Part shown: positions 22,589 to 47,732 of the stretch, in pieces
How positions within the stretch are numbered: the first letter of the stretch is position 1
Layout of the letters: each line of letters starts with the position of its first letter
Source of the DNA: Vicugna vicugna
Taxonomy: Eukaryota
DNA length: 64,000 bases
Direction of reading: 5' to 3'
NCBI GenBank assembly: GCA_013265495.1
Contig: MU057822.1
Coordinates: 33,133-97,132, forward strand
Translations under genes and position numbers: made by a program
The notes under the pieces: model-generated
What the model saw: only the letters and a program-made list of their open reading frames with translations
Databases searched by the model: none
Told to the model about the DNA's origin: nothing

Positions 22589-22690
22589 TTTTTGTTTGTT
22601 TTTTTGGAGGGAGGTAATTAGGTTTATTTGCTTATTTATGTGTTTATTTAATGGAGGTGCTGGGGGTTGAACCCAGGACCTCATGCATGG
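22589..22690 (-). mobile_element. tRNA-derived SINE, vic-1-like, 5'-truncated
   Basis: gaggtaattaggtttattt..atggaggtgctgggggttgaacccaggacctcatgcat; matches the copy at 49244. Confidence 0.8.
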
Positions 22691-25934: not shown

Positions 25935-26600
25935 TGCTTCAACTTTGGTCTCCTCATCTCGTTGACTGCCCCTTCATCTTTCCAGTTGCTCAGACCAAAA
26001 ATCTTGGGGCCACTCTTGACTTCTCTCTTTCTTTCATACCTCACATCTGTTATGTCAAGAAATATTTTGGCTCTGCCTTCCAAGTGTACCCAGAGTCCAC
26101 TCACTTCTGTCCACACACCTCCAATCCTGGTCCAAGCTGCCATCAATCCTCTTGGGCCATCATGATTGGATCACTGTACTAGCCTTCTAACTGCAATAAC
26201 ATCTCTTCTTTTCTATTTTTTTGAGGGGAAGGGAGGTAATTAGATTTTTTTTTAATGGAGGTACTGGGGATTGCACCCAGGACCTCGTGCATGCTAAGAA
26301 CACGCTCTACCACTGAGCCATACCCTCACCCTGCAATAGCATCTTACTTCTACCTTTCTCCCTGCTATAGTTTATTCTTCACACATCAGGCAGAATTTTC
26401 CTGCTAACATGTGAGTCAGATCACAAAACCCTGCGGCAGTGCCCATCTCACTCAAAGTCCTCACAGTAGTCTGCAGAGCCTTCACATCCTGGTCCCTCTT
26501 ATCTCTCTGACATCATCCCCTAGTCTTCTTCTCCCCCTAATTCTGCTCCAGCTCCACTCTTCTTGCTAGTCCTCAGATGCATTAGGCTCATTTCTATTTT
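25935..26600. mobile_element. L2 LINE fragment, interrupted by a SINE
   Basis: ttccagttgctcagaccaaaaatcttggggcc..cttgacttctctcttt..cctggtccaagctgccatca. Confidence 0.65.
26205..26330 (-). mobile_element. tRNA-derived SINE, vic-1-like, with TSD
   Basis: atggaggtactggggattgcacccaggacc..ctctaccactgagccataccc; CTGCAATA(A/G)CATCT at 26191 and 26331. Confidence 0.88.
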
Positions 26601-26899
26601 AAACCCTTTACATGAGTCATTCTTTTATTTTATTTCCAGAACTAATCATTACTTTTTGTTTTTTATTTGCTTAGCATTCCATATACCAATCACTAATTTT
26701 TTCCCCAAGTGCATCAGCATTTCTGGATACTATTTTCTATGTCCTCAAACATGTCCTTTTCTTTATTCCTTGGGTGCCTCCCTTCTGGTCCCCTCTCTAT
26801 GTAATCCTGGCATTTCCTTTCACTGCCTTCCTGTATTGAATCCCATGAATTCTAGTTCCACAACTCCTTTCTTAATTTACTTTCTCATTTGGTTGGCAC

Positions 26900-27800
26900 A
26901 CATCCTGCAGTAGCTGTTTCAGAGAAGATACATGTGTGAGGTAAAATTTAAATCCTTGCATGTTTGAAATGTTTTATTCTACTTTTATTCTTTATTGATC
27001 ATCCAGTTACAAGTATTCCAGGCTGAAAATCATTCTCACACAGGAGTTCAAAGGGACTGCTCCATTATTTTCTAACGTCTTTGTGGCTATTTAGATGTCT
27101 AATGCCATTCTGATTTTCTGTACTATTTTTTTTTTCTGGAAGCTTTGAAAATCTTTTCCTTATTCAGGGTCTTCTGAAATTTGTGCTGGCATATCTTGGT
27201 GCGAATCTTTATTCATGATGTCAGGCACTTAGTGGGACCTTTCAATCTGGAGATTCATGTCCTTCAGTTCTGGAAAATGGTATTGTTTTTGCTAGAACTT
27301 CCTTCCTCCCATTTCTCTTTTCCCCTGTTCTCTCTTGAATTCCTACTAGTTGGAAATTGGAATTCCTGGACTGGTCCTCATTCTTATCTTTCCTCAATTA
27401 TTATTATTTTTAAACCTCTTGAACTCTTATTCTGCATTACCTCTCGAACTTTCTTTTAAGTATTTTCTTCTTACTCTCCTTTTTAAATATTTCCAAAATC
27501 TCATTCTTGTTTTCTCATTAATTCCCTTAAAAATAACATCCTACTCTTCTTTAATGACTATAGCATCTTATTTTATTTCTCTGAAGGAATTATTTAAAGA
27601 ACTTTTATTTTTTCACATTTTTTTCCTGCTCCCATCAGCTCTATTTCCTCTAGATTCCTTTCTCCTGCTTGTTTGGGTCCCTGTCTTTCAAATGTTTGAT
27701 GATCCTGGGCTGCCCATTCTTGTCTAAACCCGATTCACTAAAAAGATGAATAGAGGCTGTGAAGGAGTGGCTGGGTTTGTCAATGGGAAGGACTTAGTAC
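26900..27800 (-). mobile_element. Ancient L1M fragment
   Basis: T-rich degenerate L1 antisense pattern (tgccattctgattt..gggacctttcaatctggagattcatgtccttcagttctgg). Confidence 0.6.
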
Positions 27801-29049
27801 AAGGTAATTGAGCCTTTTCAATGGGGGCGTGACTCCAAAATGTCAGACATCAGAGTTCTTTTCTCTGAAGCCATCAGTTCTCCAGAGAACTTCTCAGATC
27901 TGCCGGCAGTGCAGGTGGGAGGGGCACGATGGGGGTGTGGAGAGGGCTGGGGTGAGCCTGCCTGCGATGCCTGTTCATTTTCAAAAGCAGAGGAGGTCTA
28001 ACCACCCCCTCACATGACCTTTAGCCCCCAGTTTTCGTGCCAGGCTCATTCCCAGCTTCTGGAGACCTTGGTCCTCCAAGTCCCCTGAACTTAGAGTTCA
28101 ACAGAGCCAACCCCCTTCTGCTGGTTGGTCTCCTTGTCTGCAGAGACACAGAAAGTGGTCCCCAGTTCCACCAAATCAGCCATCCACCTCTCCATCTTCC
28201 AAATGTTTGTGGGACTGTCTTGGCCATGCTGTCTCTTCTCCCATTTTCTCCCTTATAGGTTTATATGTATTTATTTTTATTCCTTTGCTGCCATTTTAGG
28301 AAGGCCTTGGAAGTGGGAAGTCAGCCGTCTGCCATGCTTCCTAAGAAGTGGGTTGCATTTAATAACAGAATTTGCTGTATCGCTCAAAGAAAAGGGAGGG
28401 CAGTTAAAATACTCAATTTGTGTGCAGGATGTATCTTCTCGCTCATAATCCACACGTGCTGTCCGTGAGGGGCCAGCACATCAAATTCCCAGATGATGGA
28501 CTGCCCTCCGAGGGCTGTTAGGAACTTTCAGTGAACTAGGACAAGAGAGATGTGTGTTAGCGCAGTGCCTGTATTTGAGTACCGAAGTACAATTACAGTT
28601 TGGAATGTACTTGACTAAGGGCTCTGGAGATTTCGGTGAACGCCTAACTATTCTGTTCTGTGTCCAAAAGCAAGAGCAGTCTTCTGTGAGCTTCTCCTGG
28701 GAGGTCCACCAGCCCCTGGGTCTCAGGCTCTGGATTTTGAGGAGGCGGTGGGGCAGTCCCTCCGGTCTCGGCCACTCATGTACTGTGCAGAATTGGCATA
28801 CATGGGGCATCCTGGCTCAGCCAGAACGTTCTTGCTTCTTGGCATGAACCCATCTCTTTGCAAACCCAGACACTGTGTGTCTTTCTCCTCAGCCCTCTTC
28901 TAAAGTTTGCTTCTACCCATTCTTGCCCGTACACATCTTTTTCAACATTCAAGTCACTCTTTAATTTGTGACAAAGAGAGCTGGGTTCTAGTTCTGCCCT
29001 TGCCATAAACTGCCTGGAAATAGCTCAGAGGTGGCATCTAGATTCAGTC

Positions 29050-29240
29050 TGCCCCAGTCTGAATCCCAGCTCTGCCACCAATTAGCAGTGTTCCGTGGGT
29101 AAGCCCTCAATCCTCCACGGCCTCAGCCTCCTCCTCCGTCCAAAGGAGATGATAATAATAGGTCCTAACACAGAGCCCTGCTGCGGGGATTAAAGAGCTA
29201 ATCCACTGTGAAGTGCCCAGCCTGGTGCTCAGCATTCAAA
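29050..29240. mobile_element. MIR SINE fragment
   Basis: tgaatcccagctctgccac..gcctcagcctcctcctccgt..ggggattaaa. Confidence 0.65.
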
Positions 29241-29690
29241 AAAAGCCAGCTGTAACTCTGATTATCTTTCCCAAGTTAAACCCTCAGGCAAACTTTGTTG
29301 CTTCGAGCACAACTGGAGATGAGGACTCTTAGGGGGGATGAAACTTTTCAAACGGCTGAGGCAGAGGAAATGTGATCTCCTTGATTATGTCTGTAGCTTC
29401 TACCAGACCACATAGCAACAGAACAACATAGCAACTAATGAAAGCAATTCCGTTTTGCTCAACCCGTCAACTTGATTTTTTTTTAATGTCATTCTGACTT
29501 AAAAAAAGAAAAAACAAAACCTCCCTGAGTAGTTTCCGCATCACATAGACAAACCCCCGTGGTAAAAGTGGCATTTGATTTTTGTTTCGGCTCAAAAGCA
29601 GTACTCATCACAAATTTATAAACGAATCCCAGACTCCCTCGTTTCTCATGAGCCTGTTATTTTATAAGCTAGTTGCGAGATTGTTACCAC

Positions 29691-29706
29691 AGTGCCCTCT
29701 AGTGGA
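29691..29706 (-). promoter_or_regulatory. CTCF motif
   Basis: Reverse complement TCCACTAGAGGGCACT fits the CTCF core CCASYAGRKGGCRS. Confidence 0.65.
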
Positions 29707-30129
29707 ACATAATGATTTCCTTGAGTTAGGTTGCTTAGATTTTAAATAGGAGTCCGTTTATTTATTACTCATAGTATTAGGCTCATTTGAAGATAGGACT
29801 TATCCACATACTTCACGAAACTTTAAAAAAATTACTCATGATTTATTTTTCAGTCCTTTGAACTGTAAGGCTTGGTTTTCACCATCTAAGTTTCTACCTT
29901 CTCGCAGAGCTGTTCCACCACGTGGGCACATCCATCCTACTGTCGTGGTTCTCTGGGTTCAGACAGATGCTCTCAAATTAGTCCACAGGAATTCTGGAGG
30001 AGCGGGGAGAGCAAGCCAATTGTTCTGCACAGGATAGGGGGTGCAGTTAGAATTCCCAAGAAACTGCCTGAAATCATCCTTTTGTGCCAGCTCCTATCCA
30101 ACTTCTCCCCAGCTGGATGCGCTGAAGAT

Positions 30130-30699
30130 CCCAGAAGGGCTCATAGTATGATGCCCCAAAATATGCCATGTTGGCACTAGGATTATTTTGAGATGAAGGT
30201 AACTGAGAAACAGCAGATCCAGGAAAAGTTCTCTGCCCTCCCCTTATCTGCCTAAAAGTAGGGCATGGATTTTCCTTTAAGGAATGTGTCCCTCTGTCTC
30301 ATGAAGAAGAGACTAACTTTTAGCACTAGAGACTGGGGTCACACTGAGATGGAGCTGCATAGACAGACCTCACTAAAATAACCCTTATCGTCCATTAGTT
30401 TCCCCATACATTTCCTAGTCACTTTTCCAGAATTTATCACCCCTAGAAGCCCAGGTCTCCTTCCCTTTGTCTAGTCACTTCTCCACAGTGTATTGCCCTT
30501 TGTTAAAATGGTATATAAGCCCCCGTGTCTAGCTGCTTCTTTGAGTTTTCACTTCTTTTTTGGGGAAGCTCCCATGCACACAAACATGCTAACATCAATA
30601 AAAATTGTACTTATTTTCTTCTACGCGTTGTCAGTTTAATTTGCACATCCCCAGAGACAGAACATAAGCGGGTGGAGGAAAAGCTTTTCCTTTCCTACA
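30130..30699 (+). mobile_element. ERV1 solo LTR (MER34/MER39-like)
   Basis: ccccaaaatatgcc..ggattattttgagatgaagg..; TATAAG at about 30515, AATAAA at about 30597, ends ..cctaca; 5' boundary uncertain. Confidence 0.7.
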
Positions 30700-31549
30700 A
30701 TCCCAGGTGTGGAGTTAATTGTGAAAAGGGCAGGAGGTGGGTTAGCAGCCTTTGCTCCACCCACCAGGGAGCATCTTGCAGCTGGTTTGACTCTTGAATG
30801 TTACTGCTTCATCCAATTCAGCACCTTCAGCCGCTGTGCCTGACAAGTGGCTCAAGACAAGAAACCAACCACACAAAGAGCCCAGTGCACACTTTGTCCT
30901 GCCTCATCTTGACTTTCAAGGAGCTTTGTGTGTTCTATGAAATGCTAATCCTCCAGGGTGAAATCCAACCTGGTTTATCCTCAGAGCTACCAGGGCCTGC
31001 AGTGACGGTGAGCAATGAAGCACTAAATTTCTTCTCCTAAAACACAAGGGGTCTATTCAACAAACTCAGTGTTGCAGCACAAAAAGCTATTCTTGTATCA
31101 GATCAACAAAGGGAACTGGTCCAAGTGCAAGGACAATTTGAGGTTTATGTTCTGTTTTCTGTGGAAAAGTGAAACCCCAGGGAAGACCACTGGTAGGACC
31201 AAGCAAGCCCCACGAAGGGGCAGCATTTCCTAAACCTAAGTTCTGATCCAGCAGGTTGATGATGGGGCCTGGGAATCCATCCTTGACCAAGATCCCCCTG
31301 GAGAGGTTCTGATGCGATTACTGGAGGGTCGCCCACATTCTGAGAAGTACTCGATGATATCTGCCAAGGCTCAACAGCAGGTCCCATGAAAACGATCAGA
31401 TGCACAAGGTCATGACCATATAGTAAAAGAATAATTACATTTTCCAGGGTTTGGCTCAATCAGACTTTTCTTGGCCCACATAAACGCTAGTAGATAGGTA
31501 TTTATAAACAATAAATGTATGTTTAGCATCCTGAACTGTACTTTAAAAA

Positions 31550-31735
31550 AATTTTTTTTGAAGTATAGTCGATCCACAATGCTGCGCTAATTCCTGGCTC
31601 ACAGCACAGGGACCCAGCTGCACGTGTATATGCATGTTCCCCTTCATACTCTCCTAAGAGCTGCTGGAAAATATTGAATACAGTTCCCTGTGTCATACGG
31701 CAGGACTCCGTTGTCTGTCTATTCCGTATATGGTA
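31550..31735 (-). mobile_element. 5'-truncated L1 3' end, unusually GC-shifted, with TSD
   Basis: Colinear with copies at 19033 and 31862; CTGAACT(G/A)TACTTT at 31531 and 31736. Confidence 0.8.
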
Positions 31736-31849
31736 CTGAACTATACTTTTAAATAGAACATTAAGAAATAGTCATTACAGAACATTAATAAGTTGCAGTA
31801 TACAAAATCAATACACAAAAACCTGGTGTGTTTCTCTTTTTTGTAAATA

Positions 31850-32370
31850 TATATTTTATTGAAATATAGTCAGTTTACAATGTTGTGTTGATTTATGGTG
31901 TACAGCATAATGCTTCAGTCACACATGAACATATATACATATTTGTTTTCATATTCTTTTTCACCATAAGTTACTACAAGATATTGAATATAGTTCCCTG
32001 TGCTATACAGTATGAACTTGTTGTTTATCTATTTTATATATATTAGTTAGTATCTGCAAATCTTGAACTCCCAATTTATCCCTTCCCACCCCCTTCCCTC
32101 TCTGGTAACCATAAATTTGTTTTCTATGTCTGTGAGTCTGTTTCTGTTTTGTAAAAGTTCTTTGTCCTTTTTTTAGATTCCACATATAAGTGATATCACA
32201 TGGCATTTTTTTCTTTCTTTCTGGCTTGCTTTACTTAGAATGACAATCTCCAGGTCCATCCATATTGCTGGAAATGGCAGGATTTTCGTTCTTTTTTATG
32301 GCTGAGTAGTGTTCCATTGTATACATCTACTACATCTTCTTTATCCAGTCAGCTGTTAGGTGGTTTCCAT
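31850..32370 (-). mobile_element. L1 3' end (cetartiodactyl type)
   Basis: ttttattgaaatatagtc..ttttttagattccacatataagtgatatc..tggctgagtagtgttccattgt. Confidence 0.85.
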
Positions 32371-33479
32371 TATCTCACTGTTTTTAATCCATGTTACATT
32401 TTATATCATCTTGTTTCATTTTATTTATTTTAGTGGTTACTCTCTCATGCAAGTGATACTAGTTTTCTGTTTATGGGAGTGATGTAGGGTCGTCTTTTAA
32501 AATAATTTTGCTTACATGTAGATATGAGTGTGTTTGAAGAAAAATATCAAAATAATTTTACAGGTGGTGCATGGATATGTCAAAAATGAAGAAGTTGGCA
32601 CTAGACTGACTGAAATTTGGGACACATAGTTTTATTCCGACCAACAAAAATCTCAGAATCACTTAAAACTCAAATGCATCTTGCCTGAGGATTCCTAACT
32701 CTGAATATAAGCTTTGGCTGTCCACTTATTAATTTAGCAAATTCTAAGTCTTGAGCTGTGTATCTGCTTTACATACTCTTATTCCCTACCCAATACTGAT
32801 GCCAGATACACTGAGTAATTATTGATAATAAGCTGTTCCACACTTGATTGGACTCATTCCTTTGCTGGCCTGTGTGGGTGCAAAATAAGGTTTTTCTTTT
32901 GAAAATATTTTCAAATAGTTGCAATTACACTTAAACTATAAAATAAACAGTTGAAGGAGAGTTCTTTTTTTCTTTTTTTTTTTTTTAAAGTGTATTAGGA
33001 GATGCAACAGACTCCAAGTTTAGTCATTTCAGAGGGCAGAAGCAGCGGAGGAGAGCCCAGCTGGCAGGACTCAACCATAAGCATTCGTTCTTTGGTAAGG
33101 GTCTCAGGGTTTTTCTAGTTCCCTCCACCCCATGGGGGAGGGGGGAGGATTAAATCTGTCTACGGATGCAAAATACAATGGCGACCCATGATCATAATTC
33201 ATACAGCTAATTTCATGTACTTTGACCAATTCTATCACATTCCTAGCAGGTCCAAGAAATTTCCCTTCCTGTAACCTGCGGTGGGGGGACCCCAGGGTCG
33301 GGGCCTCCAAAGGAAACCATTCAGGGTTAGTTCGCTCCAGGTTGCCGCCCCTTTTTCTCGCCTAAGTAGGAAAGGAGACCCGCCTGCCCCACGCACTCCG
33401 GAGCCGGACCACCTTCTTCAGGTGTCCTTGTGAATGCAGGGCTGGGGCTGGGACTCGGGCCCTTCCCCCGGTGGGAAAC

Positions 33480-33900
33480 CCGGGCTCCACTCCCTGCACA
33501 CCCACCAGCAGCCGAGACTGGGGACTCACCTGCTGGGGTGTGGGTGGGGCAGGGCAACTTCGTTCTGAGAGTAGCCCCTCCTCTGAGGGGTGCGGAATAT
33601 GAATATGCAACACGAGCTCCTGGGCGCACACCTGGACCAGCCACGTGTTTAATATTCATGACGCTTCGTGGTTTCCCCAGGCGCTAACGAAGGGCTCGCG
33701 AGATGTTAACGGGGCGGGCTACACGAGGCAAAGCCTCCTCTGACTGGTTGCCCTTAGAGGGAGGCTGTCTTTGATTGGCTGGCATAAAGGGTGGAGCTGC
33801 AGGTTTGCCATTTGGGCGGGAGATTTGAATACCCATTTTCTTCATTTCAGGCCGTGTGGACAAGGACCTAGGCCAGCAATCCGCATTTCCCCCCAAACTG
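33480..33900 (-). promoter_or_regulatory. Second CpG-rich promoter-like module (CDE/CHR, CCAAT, GC box, CTCGCGAGA, E-box) with a minus-strand 5' splice site
   Basis: GGCGG-gaga-TTTGAA 33815-33829; ATTGG 33774; GGGGCGGG 33711; CTCGCGAGA 33695; CACGTG 33642; ACTCACCTG 33524-33532. Confidence 0.6.
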
Positions 33901-34439
33901 TGTAATTCCTTTATTTTTTACTTATTAGTACCTTACCAATACTACAACCATAAAGAACATACTCCAAACACTACTCTCAGTCTGGGAGCTCCAATCCACT
34001 CCTTTTGTAGATGTAAAAACTACTTCTGACTCCTAGTCTGAGTCCGGCCACCGCCCTAGTCTGTCCTCTGAGGGGCAGGCCTGGGGTGCGAGGACCGGCG
34101 CCTCCGCCCACCTCCTCTCAACCCCCTCGCAGCCGCGGCAAACCCAGGAATCTCTCGCGCCTAACTCCCTGTAGCGCCAGGTTTGTGGCTTAGCGGTCCC
34201 GGGCCAGCCGACGGCTGCGAGGACGGACGTGGAGGCACCGTCCAGCCCAACCCTGAAGCACACCTAGGGAGTCCCAGATCCAGTGAGAGCAGTGCGGCCG
34301 GAGGTGACCCAACCGCAGAACTCCCGACTCCTAGCTTGGGGTTTTGGTCGCTGTCTCTTGCTTGGTGTCCCGCGTCTTCGTGGTAGGTTGAGACGGCCGA
34401 GCATCTGGCCCGAGCTCTCCCAGGCCACATTCCTGTGTC

Positions 34440-34655
34440 TCCAGAGCTGGGAAAACATAGAACTCGCGCCTGCGCAGAATCTTCCAGCGATGCTGCTTCG
34501 CGCTAGACCGCGCCCCCTTTGCCTTGGTGACGCGTCATTGGTTGCCATGGAGACCGTGCTGTTAACCTCCCAGTTCTACAAGAGCCCCGAGCTCCAGCTA
34601 GGGTAAGGAGCCTCCCACCCTGAAGTTGCGTAGTAGTTCTGTCCTTGAGGTAAGT
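34440..34655 (+). promoter_or_regulatory. TEKT1: TEKT1 promoter and non-coding exon 1 with RFX X-box
   Basis: GTTGCCATGGAGAC 34541-34554; TGACGCGTCA 34528-34537; ATTGG 34537; donors GG|GTAAGG (34603) and GAG|GTAAGT (34650); CpG-rich. Confidence 0.8.
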
Positions 34656-35309
34656 AAACCCCGGCCCCACCCCATCAACCCTTTACTGCAGCCTCAGACC
34701 TACCTAAAGTCTCGTGCCCACTGGGATCAGGCCGAATTTGGGTTTAATTTCGACCTCATTTAGCCCTAACTTCGATTTCTCTGGGAGCTACTCAGACTTA
34801 TCGAGGAGTCTTGGGTTAAATTTTGAGTCCCACACGCAGACAAACTTGGCAGGGGCCATAGGAGGGACTGGATTAGGAGACCCATGTTGTCAGAGGGTGC
34901 TGGGTGACCTAGGGCTCAGCCTGGTCCAGATCTGACCCCATTTCCATCCTTGTATATTTCAAAGACTTTAGAGATCCAGAAGCCTTTAGGGACAGGTGCT
35001 CAGATTTTGGGGATGGGAATGTGGCTGGGGGCAGACTTTAGCCCTGTCTGAGGAAGGCAGTTCTCACAGACAGAGCTGTGTGCAGATGAGGTGGTGAAAC
35101 AGTCGTCTCTCTGTTGCTGCTGGCCTCTGCCTGCTGACTCCTCATACATTCTTCTTCTTGTTCTCTCCTTTTCTTTGTCCTGGGAAAGTTTTGTTTCTTT
35201 CATCTGCTGAATAGGCTCAATACCCAATTGTCAGTTTATAGATGTTATGTTTGTCCATTTTTTTAGAAACATATCTGAGTTCATCTGTTTAGCAATCCCT
35301 ACTAAAACT

Positions 35310-35760
35310 GAACACTGCCCTATGACCCAGAAATTCTAATGAGTCATAAAAAATGCATGCATGTGTTCACCAAAAAACATTTATGGGAATATTCATAGCA
35401 TTCTCATGATAGTCCATAACTGGAAACCACAAATAATAGAAAACAGAGATAAATATTGGTATATTCATCCAATGGTATACTACACTTCAACGAAAATGAA
35501 CAAACTACAGCTGAGTGATACTGATAAATCTTAGAACATGATGTTGAGTGAAAGGAGTCAGATATAGAAAGGCACATAGTGATTCCATTTATATTGAGTT
35601 CAAAAACATGAAAAACAAACTTATAGCATTAAAAGTTGGAATAGTGATCACTGCGTGGTAGGGTAGTGGGGGTGGGTGGGTGAAGAATTGTGGCCAGAGG
35701 CATGAGGTGCTGATAATGCTCATTTCTTGATCTTTAATAAAAACTGCTGTTAAAAAAAAA
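35310..35760 (+). mobile_element. Ancient L1ME 3' fragment
   Basis: ctgccctatgacccagaaattc..atgttgagtgaaaggagtcaga..gattccatttatattgagttcaaaaac. Confidence 0.7.
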
Positions 35761-35806
35761 AAGGACAACTTGCTTTCAGTGAATCTAAAAGAAATTCTAC
35801 TTTTGA

Positions 35807-47732
<11,926 letters not shown>

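Follow-up and report, generated by a model that had tools for sequence, protein, structure and literature searches.

Promoters of the CDE/CHR type share a recognizable layout, and their CHRs are bound by MuvB. According to PMC4176359, CHRs lie on or very near the transcription start, CCAAT boxes are generally found upstream of them, and this layout likely sets the direction of transcription. The CHR itself functions in both orientations and is reversed in ∼45% of genes, so that orientation alone is weak evidence; at head-to-head promoters just one of the two genes is CHR-regulated (same source). A GGGCGG placed 4 bases upstream of TTTGAA is one of the CDE/CHR forms given in Table 1 of PMC5716687. 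Divergent transcription has been tied to other elements. CGCG elements lead to divergent initiation, most of it within 50 bases (PMC6192621). Stable transcripts are marked by U1 sites close at hand, and new transcripts are stabilized when a U1 site is gained (PMC6172195).

The promoter-like block and the order of its motifs

The DNA analysed here, a 64-kb stretch of the Vicugna vicugna genome (the window), contains four genes, all on the plus strand: in order, a smoothelin-like gene, TEKT1, a GGT-like gene and a MYBBP1A-like gene. The first is of smoothelin type and carries a CH-domain; the original prediction named it SMTNL2, which agrees with the expected synteny. TEKT1 was assigned from its exon 2 (35811–36017, plus strand; ATG at 35828), which matches tektin-1 at 84–97% in the best 120 of 222 protein matches, and from Pfam Tektin and PDB tektin-1 matches; Camelus proteins are 96–99% identical to the five TEKT1 exon matches of the window. 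The third is a gamma-glutamyltranspeptidase gene and the fourth a DNA_pol_phi-family gene, presumably GGT6 and MYBBP1A. In human and mouse, FBXO39 follows TEKT1 and GGT6 stands head-to-head with SMTNL2. Set against that order, the window would imply an inversion of the SMTNL2–TEKT1 block; the promoter block treated below lies inside this implied inversion and is not severed by it.

The main TEKT1 exon 1 region (34530–34649, plus strand) ends in a donor, GAG/GTAAGT, after 34649. The proximal promoter (34466–34554, plus strand) carries elements that we take to be NRF1-like (34466), CRE-like (34528) and an X-box, GTTGCCATGGAGAC (34541–34554). A distal CHR-type block lies ∼715 bases upstream of this X-box promoter. 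The block (33330–33900) has a GC content of 0.60 and a CpG observed/expected ratio of 0.55, rising to 0.79 in its core (33590–33830), and is marginal as a CpG island. It had been described as CpG-rich and separate from the TEKT1 promoter. The separation stands, with a CpG-free, AT-rich gap of 130 bases (33900–34030) between the block and the stronger TEKT1 island (observed/expected 0.75), whereas the richness is marginal over the block as a whole.

A motif search of the window placed every motif of the original prediction at the coordinates it had given. GGCGG-GAGA-TTTGAA occurs at 33815–33829 and is the sole such pair in the window on either strand; written in full, the module (33814–33829, plus strand) is a CDE, GGGCGG (33814–33819), followed after 4 bases by the CHR TTTGAA (33824–33829). 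An inverted CCAAT box (ATTGG, 33774–33778, plus strand) lies 46 bases upstream of the CHR. The predicted layout of CDE/CHR with CCAAT boxes thus holds except for the plural, since the block contains a single CCAAT box. Farther upstream, a MYB-like TAACGG overlaps a GC box, GGGGCGGG (33711), at 33707–33718 on the plus strand, each alone being at chance level. The BANP/ZBTB33-type motif CTCGCGAGA is present at 33695, within a CGCG element at 33694–33703 that has no assigned strand, as a single copy where the surrounding CpG ratio is 0.55–0.79; it matches 9/10 bases of the consensus TCTCGCGAGA, and the full decamer is absent.

To gauge chance occurrence, the 571-base block was dinucleotide-shuffled 5000 times, and for each motif the share of shuffles with at least one match was taken. 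These shares flatter the motifs, because the motifs were picked after the sequence had been seen. The CDE/CHR pair (0.0006), CTCGCGAGA (0.0014) and a minus-strand splice donor (0.017) were above chance; the E-box (0.077), the GC box (0.11), the CHR alone (0.23) and the CCAAT box (0.72) were not. The E-box, CACGTG at 33642, is flanked by two inverted ATGAATAT octamers (33599 on the plus strand and 33652–33659 on the minus strand), presumably POU-like, the second of which overlaps a minus-strand ATTAAA at 33653. The octamers are 53 bases apart, and at least one match was found in 0.002 of shuffles, a figure for a motif chosen after the fact.

On the plus strand the elements run in the order GC box (33711), CCAAT box (33774), CDE (33814) and CHR (33824). 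From this order, plus-strand starts are predicted near 33830, toward TEKT1, which is opposite to the earlier reading, in which the cell-cycle module served the minus strand. The sequence thus bears out a genuine promoter-like element laid out in the CDE/CHR manner. In the table of the CHR paper, the row for human TEKT1 has no DREAM or CHR entry; the table covers 200 bases on each side of the main start, a range that stops short of the distal block. Metagenome scans gave 0 matches for the exact 22-base pattern and at least 120 loci for a gapped CCAAT–CDE/CHR pattern, none of them an orthologue, with alignments of at most 16–26 bases that were nearly all the motif itself.

A probable upstream first exon of TEKT1

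Exon 2 of TEKT1 begins GA CTT TGG, so that every upstream exon must join it in phase 1, giving one extra base. Longer TEKT1 proteins were sought with exon 2 among 120 of its 222 matches, in 30 clusters, with up to 15 members taken from each. The exon-2 N-terminus was present in 293 of 344 TEKT1 proteins and absent in 51. Thirty proteins were flagged as extended, and two without a real extension were dropped, leaving 28. In 12 of these, from nine felid species (jaguar, leopard, clouded leopard, cheetah, puma, jaguarundi, lynx, leopard cat and cat), one 21-residue peptide stands ahead of the G-L-W of exon 2. They include tektin-1 'isoform X1' models such as XP_019672582.2 (cat), XP_026903070.1 (cheetah) and XP_025776201.1 (puma); the puma model bearing the plain name 'tektin-1' uses the upstream felid exon. 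All twelve are predictions made within a single family; they are close to identical and do not count as independent.

The felid peptide maps to the distal block. A tblastn search matched it to 33832–33900 on the plus strand with 13/23 identity (E = 5e-4 in 5.9 kb; a moderate 0.005–0.05 in the whole window); with the cat variant, the best tblastn match lay elsewhere in the window and the 33832–33900 site was not among the matches listed. A scan that takes account of codons, run over both strands of 58 of the 64 kb, placed the end of the peptide at 33900 on the plus strand with 32.7 bits, against 8.9 bits for the runner-up site and at most 12.0 bits for shuffled peptides, 0/60 of which reached 32.7. 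Four further felid variants scored 28.9–29.8 bits at the same site, so that all five variants, cat included, agree; in a free-start scan the next best sites reached 15–21 bits. A GT follows one base after 33900, at the phase-1 position demanded by the junction L-G/GL-W, and the splice site was no criterion of the scan. As a control, the horse extension returned the known exon 1, with 56.8 bits in the scan and E = 2e-12 in tblastn. The horse match ends at 34653, 4 bases beyond the main exon-1 donor and ahead of a second, weak GT (34650–34660).

The segment from 33829 to 33901 on the plus strand, 73 bases from the CHR onward, is on this evidence very probably orthologous to the 3′ part of the felid upstream TEKT1 first exon. 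Counted by hand, felid and window sequences differ by at least 11 changes in 64 bases and a 9-base insertion. The felid Met aligns with ATA at 33829–33831, which overlaps the end of the CHR by one base. The segment also contains a good plus-strand acceptor (33832–33851, 13/16 pyrimidines, CAG/G at 33851), which could take read-through from farther upstream.

None of the 16 non-felid extensions mapped to the upstream exon. No placement was obtained for those of fox (three proteins), fur seal, armadillo or one degu model, and those of panda (five) and a second degu model gave weak matches on exon 1. Extensions of elephant (two proteins) and of one horse model fall in TEKT1 intron 1, at 35360–35381 and 35541–35570, with 24.7 and 29.3 bits, and are probably retained-intron or repeat-derived. 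Both Camelus species have two RefSeq accessions for one 418-aa TEKT1 protein, which fits more than one 5′ UTR without locating them.

Comparison with the felid X1 models gives a mixed picture of how the exon would behave in the vicuña. Their 21 extra residues map to 33829–33900, and their junction phase fits the GT at 33902. The window differs in having ATA for the Met, the 9-base insertion and a T at position −1 of the donor; it should therefore lack the N-terminal extension and may not be spliced at 33901. There is no ATG in the frame of the upstream exon before the upstream stop, so that the exon would be untranslated, a 5′ UTR if used. The GTAATT at the felid-predicted phase (33902–33907, plus strand; TGT/GTAATT) is a very weak donor, with a U1 duplex energy of −1.9 kcal/mol. 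At the 7 TEKT1 exon ends the best nearby GT has −6.8 to −12.3 kcal/mol, and 271 of 509 plus-strand GT sites are as good as or better than the 33902 donor, a median rank. Thus no competent donor was found at the upstream exon end in this genome, and since this donor is weak, camelids may not splice at 33901. Sense transcripts may instead use the donors at 34180, 34381, 34602 or 34649 (−8.6 to −12.3 kcal/mol), or be rare.

Since the block holds the orthologue of a felid TEKT1 first exon, TEKT1 most likely accounts for it. The block had been called an orphan that none of the four genes explains; motif order and the felid match both point to TEKT1 instead. We consider it probable that the block is a distal, alternative CHR-type promoter of TEKT1 common to at least camelids and cats; what has been shown to be common to both is the exon next to the CDE/CHR. 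Its plus-strand use in camelids, taken separately, appears a little more likely to us than its disuse.

The minus strand and competing explanations

The minus strand carries a consensus 5′ splice site, CAG/GTGAGT (ACTCACCTG on the plus strand), at 33524–33532, with 33530 as the last exon base. As had been claimed, the site is perfect; it is the sole MAG/GTRAGT on the minus strand in 64 kb (3 occur on the plus strand), and its U1 duplex (−12.2 kcal/mol) is the strongest of 470 minus-strand GT sites in 26000–35800. By sequence pattern, the nearest candidate acceptor is at 33361–33381 on the minus strand, giving a 168-base intron. The minus-strand ATG at 33659 does read, as proposed, through 43 codons plus one base to the donor; unspliced, it opens a 110-codon ORF (33327–33659, minus strand). 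The first minus-strand AATAAA past the donor is at 32636, and the ATTAAA at 33653 precedes the donor if the start lies above 33653.

Homologues were found neither for the 43-codon exon among proteins of 77–2000 aa nor for the 110-aa ORF among proteins of 60–193 aa (0/15 candidates scored in each case), in a protein database that includes many mammalian TEKT1 isoforms. These blanks are moderate evidence, because such searches need shared exact words. Pfam returned no family for the 110-aa ORF or for a plus-strand ORF at 33370–33684. The 110-codon ORF is probably non-coding, and with neither homologue nor family a coding or lost gene on this strand is unlikely. The first exon of a lost protein-coding gene, one of the two identities originally suggested for the block, finds no support on the same grounds.

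Traces in sequence archives were sought with 37 words sampled from 33500–33900. Of the 24 runs listed, seven, from 4 studies, contain 0.35–0.49 of these words; two of the seven are recorded as RNA, and for the other five RNA is a guess. Five of the 24 rows with small shares (0.08–0.14) were set aside, and 8 raw-read rows are classed by species label alone. A minus-strand exon of 170–210 bases would give a share of 0.38–0.49, and complete coverage in a relative that has diverged by ∼3%, or carried-over DNA, would produce like shares as well. At most, part of the block occurs in RNA-type assemblies. A divergent, spliced non-coding RNA from the minus strand is plausible from the sequence; whether it would also be stable is to us close to an even question, leaning slightly to the negative.

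The earlier view, in which the block is unrelated to TEKT1 and is either an independent promoter for an unannotated spliced gene on the minus strand or what remains of a lost coding gene, draws on the same donor, sole and perfect in 64 kb and 130 bases past an ATG in fair context, and on the physical distance of the CpG block from the TEKT1 island. We regard it as quite unlikely: the orthologue of a TEKT1 first exon lies inside the block, the module order is that of a plus-strand promoter, neither the 43-codon exon nor the 110-aa ORF had a homologue among the proteins searched, and Rfam gave no match in the block. Equally improbable in our judgement is that the block is a promoter-proximal TEKT1 enhancer making unstable bidirectional RNA, the felid exon being leak-through annotated as an isoform. 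The marginal CpG island and the weak sense donor would suit an enhancer, as would the spread of the extensions, at the block in felids only and otherwise scattered to exon 1, intron 1 or nowhere, like annotation noise. The felid exon, however, starts at the CHR, the position expected of a start, the puma model with the plain name uses it, and CDE/CHR is a start-proximal element (PMC4176359). An endogenous retroviral LTR with a major splice donor we consider very improbable. The minus-strand CCAAT, GC box and ATTAAA with a strong donor downstream would loosely resemble an LTR and leader, but the closest fit to any of five primer-binding motifs leaves 5 mismatches, a level reached by 31/100 shuffles, there is no second copy of at least 30 bases within 17000–37500, the CpGs are kept, and part of the block goes back far enough for cats to share it. 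Rfam over 17000–37500 gave one tRNA-like match, outside the block, and none within 33330–33900; this match is a tRNA-derived SINE copy at 26256–26327, above the Rfam tRNA threshold (44.8 bits), with a related copy at 22633–22689.

Somewhat more probable, though still unlikely, is a switch of direction, in which the ancestral upstream TEKT1 promoter was kept, the camelid sense donor decayed and antisense transcription became productive, yielding a young spliced non-coding gene toward the smoothelin-like gene. In its fullest form, which we hold to be just as unlikely, the ancestral promoter was a meiotic-type CHR promoter and the new non-coding gene is under MYB–MuvB control. The energies of the antisense (−12.2 kcal/mol) and sense (−1.9 kcal/mol) donors favour such a switch, as does the AATAAA at 32636, the first on the minus strand beyond the donor at 33530. 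So do the divergent starts that CGCG elements drive within ∼50 bases (PMC6192621) and the stabilization of new transcripts by U1-site gain (PMC6172195). The word share expected of a 170–210-base exon is near the share seen, although a ∼3% diverged relative or DNA carry-over would give the same and 2/7 runs are recorded as RNA. Against the switch, the donor of cats may itself be a later gain, any of the four downstream donors could serve sense transcripts, and the ATTAAA at 33653 lies ahead of the minus-strand donor. If true, this would show, at a single locus and at base resolution, the birth of a gene as U1 sites shifted around a promoter that was already there.

A proposed two-promoter account of TEKT1 and its nearest parallels

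A distal CHR-type promoter of TEKT1, the reading we prefer, can be given a mechanism. Factors at the GC box and CCAAT box would hold a small CpG-rich region open, and MuvB bound at the CHR would lead to plus-strand transcription from the CHR or just upstream of it. In resting cells DREAM would repress this upstream promoter, and MYB–MuvB (A-MYB with LIN54 or TESMIN/MTL5) would activate it, most plausibly in spermatocytes. In ciliated cells, the X-box promoter 715 bases downstream would give RFX-driven expression. At the other edge of the open region the CGCG element would probably produce divergent minus-strand starts, and the donor at 33530 could stabilize the resulting transcripts as spliced non-coding RNA. 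The camelid TEKT1 protein would be unchanged, because the upstream exon has no in-frame ATG.

Control by MYB–MuvB in spermatocytes remains tentative, somewhat below an even chance in our estimate. A-MYB is described as a spermatocyte factor related to B-MYB, which acts via MuvB at CHRs (PMC11229319); MTL5 pulls down MYBL1 and MuvB from spermatocytes and is proposed to replace LIN54 (PMC8386835); and Tekt1 appears both in a list of late-spermatocyte genes (PMC11840104) and in one of motile-cilia genes with RFX-site enrichment (10.1101/817072). This published expression would suit a division in which the distal CHR promoter serves germ cells and the proximal X-box promoter serves ciliated ones. 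Against it stand the human TEKT1 row noted above, the distance of 128 kb between macaque TEKT1 and the nearest TCFL5 peak (PMC9808571), and the blank result for Tekt1 in the supplement files searched of PMC10060231 and PMC4994865.

If the account is true, the two promoters of TEKT1 follow different logics, one that of a cell-cycle-type CHR and the other that of an X-box, and there is a testable explanation of how one axonemal gene is switched on in both meiotic germ cells and ciliated epithelia. It would also suggest that the 27-residue extension in the tektin-1 models of felids comes from a 5′ UTR exon mistaken for coding sequence. Alternative promoters and divergent non-coding RNAs are common, so in general terms the account holds little surprise. 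In a literature search largely confined to journals outside subscription, we found no description of this TEKT1 promoter and no paper linking Tekt1 to A-MYB or MuvB. Cat gene models in databases already contain the exon, and it is the CHR-promoter reading that appears to be unpublished.

Among described systems, CDE/CHR promoters are the closest, sharing with the block the GGGCGG, the 4-base spacer, the TTTGAA, the CCAAT and GC boxes that precede them and the position of a first exon at the CHR. Those promoters serve G2/M genes, whereas here the gene is a ciliary and flagellar structural one, with one CCAAT box and a putative promoter that is a secondary one. With the bidirectional CpG promoters built on CGCG elements (PMC6192621), the block has in common a near-consensus element in CpG-enriched DNA between putative sense and antisense starts; it differs in having 9/10 bases of the consensus, a single copy, a marginal island and a gene that is not a housekeeping one. 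Repurposed promoter or enhancer elements and U1-stabilized divergent RNAs (PMC6172195) offer a further parallel, in that here too a strong U1 site follows shortly after what may be an antisense start.
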